Source: Basidiobolus ranarum (taxonomy: Eukaryota). From it: a stretch of 38,716 nt of DNA. How positions within the stretch are numbered: position 1 is the first letter of the stretch; every line of letters starts with the position of its first letter. Below the pieces are notes generated by a model. That model searched no databases, had not been told where the DNA came from, and saw only the letters and a program-made list of their open reading frames with translations. Below, piece by piece: positions 2,413-20,719 of this stretch. The position numbers and the translations under genes are program-made. Where the stretch lies: the NCBI GenBank assembly GCA_040143965.1, contig JASJQH010006921.1, positions 1 through 38,716 of the forward strand, given 5' to 3'.

Positions 2413-3781
2413 TTAGCACAACCAACTTTTGTTCTTCAATACTAGGGCTAAATTGCATAGCATCTGTGAGCGCCTATTTGGTAAGTATCCCTTCTCTTTA
2501 ACCAACCTATCAGTGATAATTCGGACTCCATCGATGTATTTAGCATCGCCATATCGAAGGTAAGCAAGCTCCAATATCGAGGAGAACTCCAGAACATCAT
2601 AATTACCAATATTGTGATATGGCCAGCCATTACCATGGTCTAACGCATATGGTAGGATGTAGTCTACCGCTTTCTTAATACTACGTCCATTTTTACCTTG
2701 GTAGTTCCAAATATCCACTCCCACACGCTCCGATAGTGAAGATAATAAGAAGAGCCCGCGAAGATTGAATACCGAATAGTAAAATGAGGTTTGTCGCTCC
2801 GTCTCGAATGGCTGTGAGCCATCATCCGCTATTTGCGCTTCAATACGGTTAAGTCTAGATGATTCTGCGATCTCACGCACCGCAGTGAAATTCTTTAAAA
2901 TCAGTGCTACCGACATCAACTGACAATCATAAAATGTCCCATGATTGTTAAGTGCCGATCTTTCCCCTTTTGATAGCGGGTCTTGTTGAAGCCAGTGATA
3001 ATACAAAGTAAACCACTCATTTAGGGAATTTTCCAATGGTACGGACCAGTGTGAAGATTCCCGTAAAACCTCCATCGCGTCGATTATACTATTTTAGCAT
3101 TCATAAGTATCCGTATTGCAAATCTCTAGATATAAATAGAGCTACTTACCGATAAACGTGAAAGAAGTCTAAAACTCCAGTTTGTCGTCCCATAAGTTCT
3201 CCCTTTATCATGCTACCGTACTGGATATGTGGATTCATCTTTGTCTCAGGGTTGACGAACCATTCGTTCAACCTGAGTATAGCTTTTTGGGAGTAAATCT
3301 CGTTTCGATAAAACCGATACGCAAGGGAGAGAGTATAAACATCGGCGAACATATTTCTAAGATACTCAAAGTCTTTGACCTCCTTAATGGCTGGGTTAAC
3401 TTTACCATCTTTACGTATGTAAGGTAAACCAGTGGCAGTATTTGGATCTGGCCAGAAATATTTGGCTAGTGATAAGTAATCGTGGGGATCATTAGAGGGA
3501 GTATGTTGTTTCTTTAAGGTGACAGAATAAACTTGAGAATTATTCACCGCCGAGTCGGCATCTTTCCGAAGAATATCCAAAGACAAAGTAAACTCTGAAT
3601 ACAAAGTTTTCACGTACTGAGCTCTATCTTCACCTGTCATAATACTATCTATGGAAACAGCTGGAACGCAGGAACCATCCGTGCAACCATGTATTTTAAA
3701 CAGTTGAATCTCAGAGAAGTAAAATAGGGTGAAAAATATAACGAAACCTGCGCCAGTTAGTAGTTGGTTTCTTCTATTCAT
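2413..3781 (-). CDS. Alginate/glucuronan lyase (PF05426, PL38-like), 435 aa, N-terminal membrane anchor; 2 exons (3781-3150, 3088-2413)
   Basis: Motifs DPHDYLSLAKYFWPDP, GLPYIRKDGKVNP, MNPH, NNHGTFYD, QIADDGSQPFE and YSVFNL. The 61-nt intron 3149-3089 (GTAAGT...TAG) joins the two ORFs in frame. Confidence 0.88.
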
Positions 3782-4147
3782 GTTAGGGGTTTACTAACAC
3801 TGTCAAAGGCTATTCCAGTTACCCTTTATTCATATCAGAAAATAGATAATAGGGAGACTGGTTTTCTTATGATGGAATTAATGAAAACCAATTTGTTATA
3901 AATAACCGATACTGATCTGTACTAGGGACCCTCCATAGATAACGAAAAAAAGATGGTATTTTATATAGATAGCATTAATTAGCATATATTCAGCTGCATA
4001 TTAAACAATCAATTCCATGACATGAGAGCTATGATGTTGATCTCTCAATTAAGAAAGTCTAAGAAAAAAAGATCGATGTGCTCATCAACTATTATATTCA
4101 TAATAACCAACGATTGACTAAGAGTAACTGAGCTTGCTTTTAATACA

Positions 4148-7368: not shown

Positions 7369-8271
7369 TTAGCAAGAGCCGGAACAACCTTTGCTTTTAC
7401 AGAAAAGTTGGCACTCAGCTTTTCTACGTCTCACCAAGCCTGGCAACACCTTACCACCTCCATGGACCCAAAGTTTAAATTCGGAGGCTGCTCCATTTAT
7501 ATTCCCATTGTTCAGCATGGTACGCATGTCGGAGCCGCGATACGCTCCACAGCCAAGGTTAAAGGCGAAAGATACCAAAGCGGAGAATTGATTGGTGTCT
7601 AAAGATGCGGCAGTATTATCCCTAATGCACTTCTCAAACTGAGCTAGGTCTTGCCTCAATAGAGCAGATCCCTGTGCTTCACTGATCGGCGGCTTGATAC
7701 TATCACAGTTGGATCCCGCGGTATGGCAAGCATGACCATAGCCGATTGTTTTGATACCCTAACAATAGATTGGAAGTGTGAGCAAGTACATCAGTCAACC
7801 CTCCAGAATCTTTACTTACAACTGGATCAGTGTAAAAATTGGCATAGAATCCTTCAAACTCCTTAACCAAAGCCAACCCTTCGTTATTGATTTGCCCATT
7901 GTTTGGCGACCCACCACCATCACCACCAGTACCATCGCATCGTGGAACACCAGGAACCCAATTCTGATTAGTCTGTACATAGTAATCCGACACATAGCCA
8001 TTACTTTGAACCTTATCCCAAATGCTATCGAAATATGTAAGTAAACCAATAAAAGTACAAGCATCAGAGCCACTTACTTTGTGGTTTGGATTTTCTCTCC
8101 TGTAGTTTGGCAGATGATCTGAACATCGGCTCCAGCAGCTAACGAACCAACCACGGAGTATTGAGTTCCGGGACCAGAGCGGATATTAACACCTTCATTG
8201 ACACGATACCCCATCACTAGCCCTTGACCACCAAGAGAAACCAAAGCTATCTTCAAAGTGAAATACTTCAT
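7369..8271 (-). CDS. Secreted SH3b + GH24 (phage-type) lysozyme, 262 aa; exons 8271-8078, 8024-7820, 7758-7369
   Basis: Signal peptide, then SH3b-like VNIRSGPGTQYSVVG...IWDKV..GYVSDYYV, then a Gly linker. GH24 catalytic segment EFEGFYANFYTDPVGIKTIGYGH (E-x8-D-x5-T), followed by NQFSALVSFAFNLG and W...GGKVLPGLVRRRKAE. Two canonical introns (53 and 61 nt) keep the frame. Confidence 0.92.
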
Positions 8272-13590: not shown

Positions 13591-13879
13591 GTCACAACAT
13601 GATTAAGCCATTAATTGTATTTTGTTCTCTTTTTTGTTGACCAACCCTCTCCTCTCTTCCCCCCTACACTTTGTATAGAGTTTTTTGTCAATTCAATTGG
13701 TTGATTTTTATTTGCACCTGTATGTAAAGTAATCCTTCATTGGAACAATATTCTAATAATATCCTTATGTAACACCATTCAGGTTGTTTAAATTGAATAT
13801 TAAGAATAGTTGGAATTATTTTGTGTGGAACTTGAATGAATTATTACAAAAATCAGTGGCATCCCACAGACTTCGTAAT

Positions 13880-14135
13880 CTCCCATGAGATATCTACACT
13901 ATATAAACACTGATAGCAACATCTGGATTCAATGTTCTTACCAACTTGTTGGCATCGGCCGAAAATACCCTCTATGAGGAATTATGATGATCGCGCTATC
14001 TTGCTTCCGAGTTGCAGATTCTAATATCCGTGTTATCTGCGGCCTGAGTAACGTCTTCTAACGTTCTGGCTGTTCGTCTAATCGGGTACATTTCTTCATT
14101 AACATCAAGTATAAATTTCCAAATTTTACTTTATC
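13880..14135 (+). repeat. Dispersed repeat, copy 1 (TATA-headed, structured; ncRNA or LTR/SINE-like)
   Basis: Reverse complement of 24881-25140 (about 5 differences in the roughly 190-nt core) and of 24423-24641. Confidence 0.9.
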
Positions 14136-14343
14136 TCTGATTCATACACAGTCACCGCGTTCACTACGTATAGCTCATTCAATGTTACTATTCGCTATTA
14201 CAATTGTGTGAATGACTAGTTTGTTTGACTTCATATTGGTTTGAGAATTAAGCTATATAGTAGAATTCGTTTACTACATGAATACTTTCTTCAATTACTT
14301 TAGCAAAGTGTTTATCTTCGATATTAGCTGTCATCGCTCTACG

Positions 14344-15383
14344 TGACGTAAAATTGGTGACCTATTATTGATCAAGCATCTACATCGTGGAAGTGCAGTT
14401 GTTGGTACAGCTAATCAAGACTGGAAGGTGCCTTGTCATAAGCCTTCGTATGATGGATATTATGATTGGATGTAAATAAGTGAATAAATGCATTGCGGGA
14501 GATGACGCCAACCTAATACGACAATAATTATTTAAAGTTAAATGGTTAAGAACTGGAGGTAAAACGGGGGGAATAGATGACAAGGATTGGGAGTGACGTT
14601 TCTAATTCGAATAAAGATTATTCGACTTTAATTTATATATCTTGTTCTTTCCCAATTTCTTGCTCATTCTCATCATCTCAGATTATGGATAAAATTAACG
14701 CTAATCTTAAATCGACTGGTGCCGCCGTCAAAGAAAGTATAGGAAATATGACTGGTAATCAACATATGGAAGCCGAAGGAAGGGCTGATCGCGCCAAGAC
14801 AGATGCTGAATATAAGAGTGCTCACGCTCAAGAATATAGTCAAGGAGCTGGCGAAAAGGCTAAGGGTAATATCAAGGATACAATCGGCGACGCCATCGGC
14901 AATGAACAAATGCAAGCAGAAGGAAAAGCAGACGTGGCTAAGGGTGGTGCTCGTATGAATTGGAACTCCTAATCGAAATTGTGTGCATAATAAGTGTGTA
15001 ATAATAACATTGTGAAAGTAATAAAAATGCAATAATTGCCAAAATATCGGATAAATAACTGAATATATCATTAGAACTCAGCAAAAGAGATCGATCGGTT
15101 TCGAAGTGCATGAGTGAAAAGTATATGGTTAATTTTACTTGCCACTTACAATGTAGGAGGTTAAGACATAAACTAGTTATGATTGGAACACTAGCATAGG
15201 GCCACTCATGTACTGTACCTCATATTCGCAACGTCACGAATTATCTAAAGCAGGATGTGGATGTATGCTTGCTACATGTCGGTGGTTCAAACTTTTGGGA
15301 AGTCACATCAATGACGTTGTCAAAAGTTAGTACCTATTCACACTTGTCAAGTGACTGAAGACGTCACCATGACTCTATATAAA
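14344..15383 (+). promoter_or_regulatory. Cluster of CRE/ATF motifs (TGACGT/ACGTCA) and TATA boxes upstream of the CsbD/Hmp1 genes
   Basis: TGACGTAA at 14344, TGACGT at 14594, ACGTCA at 15231, TGACGT at 15312, ACGTCA at 15361, TATATAAA at 15376. Confidence 0.55.
14685..14972 (+). CDS. CsbD-like / Hmp1 ('mismatched base pair and cruciform DNA recognition') stress protein, copy 1, 95 aa
   Basis: Two internal repeats of K(E/D)xIGxxxGNxxMxAEG(K/R)A. The start at ATG 14685 is chosen by alignment to copy 2. Confidence 0.85.
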   Translation: MDKINANLKSTGAAVKESIGNMTGNQHMEAEGRADRAKTDAEYKSAHAQEYSQGAGEKAKGNIKDTIGDAIGNEQMQAEGKADVAKGGARMNWNS

Positions 15384-15437
15384 CCGGTATTTCCTCGTAG
15401 TTAGAAGACATATTCAACAACTTTAAACTACTTCACT

Positions 15438-15725
15438 ATGGACAAAATCAACGCTAACCTTAAATCCGCTGGTGGTGCCGTCAAGGAAAGCCTCGGTAAC
15501 ATGACCGGTAACGAGCAGATGCAAGCTGAAGGAAAGGCTACTCGCGCCCAAGCTGATGCTGAACATAAGAGTGCTCAAGCCCAAGGTTACAGCCAAGGAG
15601 CTGGTGAAAAGGCCAAAGGAAACATCAAGGACACTATCGGTGGAGCTCTTGGTAACGAGCAGATGCAAGCCGAAGGAAAGGCCGGAGCTGCCAAAGGTGA
15701 TGCTCGTATGAACTTCAACTCCTAG
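15438..15725 (+). CDS. CsbD-like / Hmp1 stress protein, copy 2, 95 aa
   Basis: 76/95 aa identical to copy 1, intronless, with a TATA box at 15376. Confidence 0.88.
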   Translation: MDKINANLKSAGGAVKESLGNMTGNEQMQAEGKATRAQADAEHKSAQAQGYSQGAGEKAKGNIKDTIGGALGNEQMQAEGKAGAAKGDARMNFNS

Positions 15726-18932: not shown

Positions 18933-19550
18933 TTAATAGGAGAATGCTGCTAACAAAGTGATGGCCAAAACCAATGATGAATAAGGAGAACTGATGAAAT
19001 GTCCTGCGTCATTAGTAGTAGTACTATTAGCAGCTGGTTTAGCAACCGTCTGAACGCTGGCTGCTGGCGAAGGTAAAGACATTCCATTTTGACCTGGTTG
19101 AGGAATACCAGTCCATTCGGTAGAACCGTTCACACAGATTTGATGAACTGGGAAATACAATACGTTATTGGGAACTTGAGCGGGAAGTTTCATGGAGATA
19201 CCAAAATCCTCGTAGAAAGTAGGTTCTAAATAACCCGAGAATGTGACTGAACTGACTGTTTGATTAATGGTTTCTCCATGACTGGTAACTGGAGGAACCA
19301 GTGGACGGTAATTCAATGAAATGGTCCAGTTATGAGTTTGATGAGGCGCGACACTGGTAACGCCATCAGGAATATCTACAGTTAATTTCACCGTTGGGGA
19401 ATTAGAGCAACCGTGACCAACGCGGAAGGCAGTTTGAAAGTATGAATCCAAATATGCCATGTTAGGATTGGCAGTGACATGAGCCATCACTGGGGTAACA
19501 GCGACCAGACAAGCGGCTAGAGATGCGGTTAGGGCATTGAAGGAAACCAT
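18933..19550 (-). CDS. DUF1775 / YcnI-like copper-binding protein, secreted and probably GPI-anchored
   Basis: Signal peptide ends VMA|HVT. Motifs FRVGHGC, IPDGVTSVAP, WTI, LYFPVHQICVNG..EW, then a hydrophobic tail. Intronless, with TATATAAA upstream at about 19624-19631. Confidence 0.85.
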   Translation of the reverse strand: MVSFNALTASLAACLVAVTPVMAHVTANPNMAYLDSYFQTAFRVGHGCSNSPTVKLTVDIPDGVTSVAPHQTHNWTISLNYRPLVPPVTSHGETINQTVSSVTFSGYLEPTFYEDFGISMKLPAQVPNNVLYFPVHQICVNGSTEWTGIPQPGQNGMSLPSPAASVQTVAKPAANSTTTNDAGHFISSPYSSLVLAITLLAAFSY

Positions 19551-20719
19551 GGTAAACTGTGGAAATTTAAAGTTGGTAGAAGAGCTTTACAAACTTGTCG
19601 TTTCTGTCACGAAGGATTCTGGGTTTATATACCAATAAATGAATACAAATAATTTCAACATACCTCCCGATGATTGATGGTATAGCATCGATAAACACTC
19701 GACTTGCAACCTTCAGGAGCTAACCTGTTATAGTTTCACACTTAATCTTTCCGGTATATATTGTAGGCTAAAGTAGATATCATGCTTGTTGTACAACATT
19801 CTAAAATGGGGAATCTTCCAGAAAGTGTCTTACCCTTGACCAGTGAATAGAGCGGTAGATGAGTGGGGTTTGTTCTGAAAAAGGCGAAGTTCTAGAATCC
19901 CCTTAAGATAACAATACTGTGACTCTACTGTCTCACCACCAGTTAAGCTGGTATCTACAAATTTGGTAAGAAACTAGAAGTTTTAGGATAGGACTACGTG
20001 ATACACAAAAGATTTATTACATAAACCATGTCTTGTAGATGGTTATTGGGCGACATATGATGCATCGGTATTAGAGGAATCATAGAAAAAAAAGGAATTA
20101 TTTCTCAGTGGACTATTGAATTGGCTCCATAATACTTGGACTTAGTATGTGTAAGAGATTAGTGGCAGTATTGTTAAAAGTCACTTAAAAGTAAGAGAGT
20201 GATGAGTATGGATACCGTTAAGAATTTAGAGATAATTGTTTGCAGTTTACACCTACTACTGATTATTTTGAAAATAGGGTAGTATCTGCAGGGATATATT
20301 GGCCAATACAATTACCCCTAAGATTAACTAATAACAACCAACAACTTTATAGCCTCAGTTAGTTGACATATAATCAATCAATATGGTAAATTCTCTTCGA
20401 AACTTGATTCTCTGGATATCATATTCTTGTATTATAAGTACTTGAGGATGTGCGGATATCAACTCTTTACATAGTGAGGTCTTAGCAACATATAACATCA
20501 TGCAGCAGAAATATCTCGAATGAAGAGATAGGAAGCAGTGATTTTGGGATATAGGCCAAAAATCAATCAATTTTTTTGAAATGTAAAAATCTATGTAAAG
20601 AGTTTCGGTTAGATTTTGATACTCATCTGGTTTAATACTAAACAAATATGTATGAGTTATAAATGTGCCTAAGGTAAATTTTGGAAGAGCAGCTCTATCA
20701 TTCTTACTCATATTGTTTT

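Follow-up and report, generated by a model that had tools for sequence, protein, structure and literature searches.

Three paralogous genes in Basidiobolus ranarum that probably encode a box H/ACA guide snoRNA for 18S pseudouridine 999 behind an snRNA-type promoter

What is encoded by a TATA-headed, structured element that occurs three times within one intron-rich, gene-dense and fungal-looking contig of Basidiobolus ranarum? An earlier note on this stretch (38,716 nucleotides, referred to here as the window) had left two identities standing, an unknown noncoding RNA gene family or an unusual small mobile element. The analysis described below makes it very likely that the repeat represents three stand-alone paralogous box H/ACA guide snoRNAs, the counterpart of snR31, Nc ACA5 and human ACA8, which would guide pseudouridylation of 18S rRNA at position 999.

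A DNA search of the 65-Mb assembly placed copy 1 at 13860-14140 (+) and aligned it with copy 3 at 24918-25139 (-) with 95% identity and with copy 2 at 24424-24643 (-) with 88% identity, in agreement with the places given earlier. This search served as the genome-wide copy-number check that had been proposed; it detected no fourth copy in the assembly, the matches totaling three. A looser pattern search of the genome yielded one extra match, on contig C6949, which on inspection by eye had only the letters of the pattern in common with the element. All three copies begin with TCCCAT followed after 13 nt by TATATAAAC and end in AATCGG(G/A)TA(C/T)AT, as the earlier note had it. The exact pattern TCCCAT-N11-16-TATATAAA was not enriched genome-wide (13 matches versus 14 for the reversed control). 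A distance of 499 nt separates copies 2 and 3, which are direct repeats, and copy 1 is inverted relative to both (Table 1). The neighbors of copy 1 are an F-box gene on one side and two CsbD genes on the other; copies 2 and 3 are found between a PAC2 gene and a DHHC gene. The tandem CsbD-like genes (14684-14971 and 15437-15724 of the window) are 78% identical. Elsewhere in the window, we noted genes of bacterial-type families, namely, alginate lyase, phage-type lysozyme and DUF1775 at 2413-3790 (-), 7369-8185 and 18933-19586 (-), which were possibly acquired horizontally, and, at 34161-34260, a tandem array in which a 20-nt unit is repeated five times almost perfectly.

Table 1. Features of the three element copies, in window coordinates
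Feature	Position	Strand	Remarks
Copy 1, USE core TCCCAT	13881..13886	+	Motif also upstream of 23/24 U1/U2/U5/U6 copies examined
Copy 1, TATA box	13900..13907	+	USE-TATA spacing as in the genome's own U2 gene
Copy 1, predicted mature H/ACA snoRNA, ~154 nt	13940..14093	+	Placed by fold and promoter distances
Copy 1, 5' hairpin	13942..14014	+	Candidate guide arms 13947-13957 and 14000-14006
Copy 1, internal ATGATGA, inside 5' hairpin	13984..13990	+	
Copy 1, hinge / H-box position AGATTCT	14016..14022	+	Unpaired in MFE fold; sixth base noncanonical
Copy 1, 3' hairpin with pocket	14026..14087	+	Arms TATCT 14034-14038 and TCGTCT 14074-14079; predicted target 18S U999
Copy 1, ACA box	14088..14090	+	14 nt past start of right guide arm
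Copy 2, USE (24635-24640) and TATA (24614-24621)	24614..24640	-	
Copy 2, predicted snoRNA	24428..24581	-	Most diverged; ACA 24431-24433; 3' guide and H position intact
Copy 3, USE (25134-25139) and TATA (25113-25120)	25113..25139	-	
Copy 3, predicted snoRNA	24927..25080	-	Tail box ATA 24930-24932; C-like motif ATCATGA

We then compared the copies along their length. Between the end of the TATA box and the end of the predicted RNA, copies 1 and 3 have 7 differences in 186 positions, of which 1 falls among the 32 leader positions and 6 among the 154 RNA positions; this figure replaces the previous count of about 5 in roughly 190. In the same two copies, the USE-TATA block shows 7 differences in 27 positions, and the stretch just downstream of the RNA shows 22 in 40. 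Copy 2 departs from the other two at 7 to 8 of the 32 leader positions and at 13 and 17 of the 154 RNA positions. Conservation falls in the spacer between USE and TATA, with 5 to 8 differences in 27 among the copies, and three-way conservation ends 3 to 5 nt past the tail box (ACA/ATA/ACA). Across the three copies 18 columns are variable, none of them within the 3' guide arms or the H position. The flanks had been described as alignable but diverged; this held immediately downstream of copies 1 and 3, where the first 50 nt clearly exceeded shuffled sequences (4 of 1,000 shuffles did as well, and 33 of 1,000 over 100 nt), and it failed for the remaining flank pairs, upstream ones included, which scored no better than shuffles (106 to 785 of 1,000). 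We propose that the three copies were born by local duplication, that selection would retain the RNA and both promoter boxes while spacers and flanks drift, and that conversion from TATA to ACA probably homogenized copies 1 and 3. The pattern supports the previous reading of a TATA-headed, probably transcribed family of structured RNA genes under selection or conversion.

The free minimum free energy (MFE) fold of copies 1 and 3 (13940-14093 in copy 1) consists of two hairpins with an open hinge, AGAUUCUAAU, between them; the second hairpin leads into ACA or AUA plus three final bases, and pairing probabilities for the model helices are 0.95 to 1.0. The folding energy as such is unexceptional (z = -1.38; 18 of 200 shuffles fold equally well). 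The sequence at the H position, AGATTCT, is invariant in all three copies and has C at position 6, so it is not ANANNA. The tail box, ACA in copies 1 and 2 and AUA in copy 3, directly follows the last stem; AUA is a tolerated variant of the ACA box, and the terminal ACA/ATA flagged in the earlier note fits the H/ACA tail position in every copy. Four of the 35 model pairs vary on one side with pairing kept, none varies on both sides, and two are broken in some copy, so that the claim that substitutions keep pairing applies to one-sided changes only. The suggested covariation check accordingly returned no two-sided covariation, which three close paralogues cannot show. A further hairpin described previously, GTTGCAGAT/ATCTGC, proved to be an alternative fold that is negligible in copies 1 and 3 (probability of ≤0.03) and dominates copy 2 (0.95). 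It hides both the H box and the guide: the left guide arm, being complementary to the target CAGAUA, pairs in this fold with the hinge CAGAU, which reads almost identically to the target. In silico, copy 2 adopted the two-hairpin fold only when hinge and tail were forced open (-31.2 versus -36.3 kcal/mol), and given the dominance of the alternative fold, this copy may depend on proteins for its folding or may be undergoing decay.

Searches with general RNA models assigned no family to the element. The recommended Rfam scan gave no match in the window at the gathering cutoff, and ARAGORN predicted no genes there. Below the cutoff, the only hint on copies 1 and 3 was weak and came from an H/ACA family, snR161 (E values of 0.4 and 0.068), apart from one lncRNA model that appeared at an E value of 8.1. 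Likenesses to U8, U3, U13, telomerase and SL RNA were rejected, as we saw no Rfam support, terminal D box, template repeat or Sm site.

We next asked which uridine the 3' pocket would select. Searches of the assembly for its own rRNA returned only two weak matches below the cutoff and no exact 18S motif, and none was found in viral contigs; therefore, targets were tested on the rDNA of other organisms, taken from eukaryotic rDNA contaminant contigs in prokaryote assemblies (53 loci, 5 of which were typed with Rfam, their fungal type being our own reading). Such contamination extends to at least 53 stretches of eukaryotic 18S rDNA, and one locus, L048, carries a group I intron in its large-subunit gene. 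According to the available text of PMC2780460, H/ACA guides form bipartite duplexes of 9 to 13 bp with the target uridine 14 to 16 nt from the H or ACA box, and in our search the right arm was fixed at 14 to 16 nt from ACA and the left arm kept inside the pocket. In all three copies the 3' pocket forms 5 + 6 bp, 11 of 11 of them Watson-Crick, with 18S AGACGA-U-C-AGAUA at a distance of 14 nt from ACA/AUA. This site was the best match of every copy among 18S, 5.8S and 25S rRNA and the genome's own U1, U2, U5 and U6. When the left arm was left unconstrained, one or two ties emerged, their arms lying outside the hairpin. None of the genome's own snRNAs tested as targets (U1, U2, U5 and U6) scored as high.

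The site corresponds to yeast position 999 by an offset that agrees with 12 of the 13 remaining modified bases listed between 619 and 1290 in the available part of Table 1 of PMC5699541, the exception being 766. Pseudouridine 999 is guided by snR31 in yeast and belongs to helix 24, in the E region; its human and Arabidopsis equivalents are psi1056 and psi1000, respectively, as given in the accessible portion of PMC2794176. Shuffled pockets reached 11 pairs at any of 1,293 uridines in 407 of 5,000 cases, and since a match of this quality to some uridine is that frequent, the argument for U999 depends on its being a known site. At any of 12 yeast 18S sites (those mapping to U in the test rRNA, with 2 of 14 dropped as not U), 11 pairs were attained by only 147 of 100,000 shuffled pockets, from which we estimate, on scaling up to 45 yeast sites, a chance level of roughly 0.005.

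These frequencies bear on a rival reading in which the RNA has the shape of an H/ACA snoRNA but serves chiefly in a different job or on a different target (as an orphan, a scaRNA or a processing RNA), so that the U999 match would be incidental. The commonness of 11-pair matches when any site counts and the noncanonical H box are compatible with such an RNA, as are the resemblance of the right arm to an arm of snR161 and, in the consulted portion of PMC2875012, the association of snRNA-type promoters in plants with processing snoRNAs and not with guides. Against this, the top site of all three copies is one that is modified in yeast, human and Arabidopsis, the 14-nt spacing is exact, none of the genome's own U1, U2, U5 and U6 scored as well, and motifs recognized by eye are in common with Nc ACA5. 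We therefore regard another main target as improbable.

A box C/D RNA, or a C/D-H/ACA composite with an internal C box like the capped plant U13, would bind Snu13 and Nop58 and pair with pre-rRNA. The ATGATGA...CTGA motifs pointed out earlier are indeed present, with box C altered in copy 3; RTGATGA followed by CTGA arose in only 83 of 20,000 shuffles, copy 2 contains 10 nt that are perfectly complementary to a stretch near the 18S 3' end, and plant U13 genes combine USE and TATA with a C box about 30 nt inside the RNA (available text of PMC2875012). However, the C-like motif lies 45 nt into the predicted RNA, and 46 nt separate CTGA, which falls within the upper stem of the 3' hairpin, from the conserved end. 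In copy 3, box C has lost the G required for the kink-turn (ATCATGA), and yet the H/ACA features are all retained. We found no antisense stretch of ≥10 nt that ends beside CTGA, and copy 1 contains 5 stretches of this length, compared with 2 to 14 in 30 shuffles. On position, on the copy 3 change and on the missing antisense element, the C/D reading fails; the C/D-like boxes look incidental, and we consider a C/D function quite unlikely. A small nonautonomous mobile element (MITE, SINE, solo LTR or TRIM) might leave dispersed near-identical copies in both orientations with copies 2 and 3 as direct repeats, but we judge this origin very unlikely given that there are only three copies, all on one contig, that copy 1 is inverted, that no TIR, TSD, TG..CA or poly(A) was seen by eye at the ends (the earlier note had likewise seen no TIRs, TSDs or poly(A)), that neither a primer-binding site nor a purine tract was evident by eye between copies 3 and 2, that the proposed gag-pol check met no gag/pol family among 13 open reading frames scanned within or next to the region separating the copies, a region with CsbD, zinc-finger, DUF1775, UCH and PAC2 genes, and that conservation tracks USE, TATA and RNA, falling between the boxes.

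The H/ACA guide reading also places the element among known RNAs, and it is no longer of unknown class in that anatomy and target put it among the H/ACA RNAs that guide 18S pseudouridine 999. Among its closest parallels is Nc ACA5 of Neurospora crassa, which was cloned, was seen on Northern blots and guides the same 18S site with its ACA pocket (available text of PMC2780460). Like the RNA predicted here, Nc ACA5 is an intergenic H/ACA RNA whose ACA pocket addresses 18S CGA-psi-CAGAUAC, and, compared by eye, the two have in common AGAUU at the hinge, UAUCU and UCG as arms and AUCGG ahead of ACA. The sixth A of ANANNA is missing from both hinges (AGAUUG in Nc ACA5 and AGAUUC here). The Neurospora RNA differs in its length (187 nt versus ~154 nt), in its hairpin bodies and in that no 5' pocket target is assigned to it in the text available, and the element is present in three copies with a USE. 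Saccharomyces cerevisiae snR31 (RF01257) guides the same modification and is longer, with a model of 223 positions. Human ACA8/SNORA8 (RF00393) and Arabidopsis snoR5 are homologues listed for the same site (psi1056 and psi1000) in the portions of PMC2780460 and PMC2794176 at hand. On the genome, the Rfam models of snR31 and SNORA8 returned nothing at E ≤ 10, with 28 and 46 candidates scored, respectively. As the cutoffs of RF01257 and RF00393 were not reached, we file the element as a functional counterpart and not as a member of either Rfam family; it may descend from the snR31 family. The human ACA8/SNORA8 gene is intronic and has a different second target.

Searches beyond this genome were also carried out. 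A pattern scan of metagenomes gave 43 matches, and none of the distinct ones inspected had the two-hairpin layout. A model built from the three copies (R1), run on 23 of these 43 matches, 10 promoter loci and the window, recovered only the three copies, and neither scan identified a homologue in a second genome. A literature search on Basidiobolus and snoRNAs found nothing relevant.

To place the promoter, we examined the genome's own small RNA genes, for which model matches numbered 19 for U1, 9 for U3, 14 for U5, 25 for U6 and only 1 for U2. Within the subsets analyzed, from which one U6 and one U3 copy were dropped for having too little upstream DNA, the motif WCCCAY was located at -56 to -68 in 1 of 1 U2, 7 of 7 U6, 7 of 7 U1 and 8 of 9 U5 copies (23 of 24), against a background of 3.8% per 40 nt. 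The motif was absent from all seven U3 copies, which have a TATA box only. The distance from USE to TATA is 19 to 21 nt in the element, similar to U2 (18 to 20 nt) and two U5 copies, and is 29 to 30 nt in U1 and 34 nt in U6. The plant rule for this distance in U6 versus U1 is the opposite of the one seen here, where U6 has the longer spacing. Because the spacing is like that of U2, the RNA of copy 1 would start near 13938-13944, a range set by the U1, U2 and U6 promoter distances, and its 3' end is placed at ACA + 3. No run of ≥4 T follows ACA, which together with the U2-like spacing favors RNA polymerase II, as we infer. An intron-containing SNAPC3 (SNAP50) gene is present on contig C8100 (2430-3208), consistent with a working USE. 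With the motif and the spacing of the genome's own snRNA genes and an encoded SNAPc gene, the upstream region of the element qualifies as an snRNA-type promoter. A second USE-like motif of the TCCCACA type is found at 13865-13871, 19 nt upstream of the copy 1 USE (-78), and is absent from copies 2 and 3. At the cutoff, Rfam also had no match on the 10 further loci that show the promoter pattern.

In this genome, small-RNA genes typically come in several copies whose flanks have diverged. Contig C181 (7761-16049) carries a cluster of eight U5 matches in tandem and inverted arrangement, and U5 copies on it lie 489 to 549 nt apart, like copies 2 and 3. On contig C19 (41603-42355), a U3 and a U1 gene stand head to head, 364 nt apart.

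The same CCCA core occurs in the USE of plants, algae and ciliates, which likewise combine USE and TATA, for example, TCCCAHCA in Galdieria, ACCCAYAW in Micromonas and RTCCCWTA in Stentor (PMC8287931, available text), and the motif upstream of this genome's snRNA genes equals algal and ciliate USE consensus sequences (accessible parts of PMC8287931 and PMC9841428). Plant-type USE-TATA promoters are bound by SNAPc and can drive polymerase II or III (PMC8287931 and PMC2875012, as far as available). Among Arabidopsis snoRNAs, the portion of PMC2875012 at hand gives this layout only for U3, MRP and U13, whereas here it fronts a probable modification guide, and in a fungus. A literature search for a USE of such fungi returned no description, which is weak evidence of absence.

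Taken together, these data suggest the following course of events. SNAPc and TBP would recruit RNA polymerase II to the USE-TATA promoter, and the transcript would be trimmed to ACA + 3. By established H/ACA biology, Cbf5, Nop10, Nhp2 and Gar1 would bind the snoRNA, the arms of the 3' pocket would pair with AGACGA and AGAUA flanking U999-C1000 of 18S rRNA, and pseudouridine would be formed at U999, a position of helix 24 close to the E site.

The 5' pocket could have a target of its own. In copies 1 and 3 its best match is 18S U558 (yeast numbering), with 18 pairs, 13 of them Watson-Crick, at 16 nt from the H position; 21 of 2,000 shuffles matched as well, 5 of the 18 pairs are G-U, and three unpaired bases separate the arm from the stem. 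U945 comes second in these copies (11 Watson-Crick pairs at 14 nt). A single change in copy 2 disrupts both matches, and its pocket scores at chance (781 of 2,000). Neither uridine is in the available part of the yeast modification inventory (PMC5699541). By an inferred offset, U945 is two bases from the equivalent of human psi1004. U558 lies two bases from what we take to be the equivalent of human psi609, and it adjoins helix 18 of the decoding center. U560 and complements in 5.8S rRNA or at the 18S 3' end were rejected as 5' pocket targets for poor geometry or chance-level scores. It is conceivable, at rather less than even odds, that copies 1 and 3 act as double guides, with a 5' pocket that directs pseudouridylation at U558, and that, since copy 2 has lost this guide, the paralogues have split in function, all under a plant- and protist-like USE-SNAPc promoter that was kept in this fungal lineage for U1, U2, U5 and U6 and serves a modification guide as well. 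We treat the U558 guide as a lead and not as a result.

As a guide for a pseudouridine common to yeast, plants and humans, the RNA itself would be ordinary. It fills a gap, as only 7 of 50 fungal H/ACA families are traced to early-branching fungi in the available text of PMC5824354 and the element is invisible to Rfam; its family may already be listed among the early-fungal members there. The more useful result is a CCCA-type USE before U1, U2, U5 and U6 in a genome with SNAPC3, in likeness to plants, algae and ciliates. Promoter-led discovery of hidden small RNAs, including telomerase RNA, has been achieved in plants and insects, and if the USE holds, this promoter would provide a handle for finding other hidden small RNAs here, telomerase RNA included.
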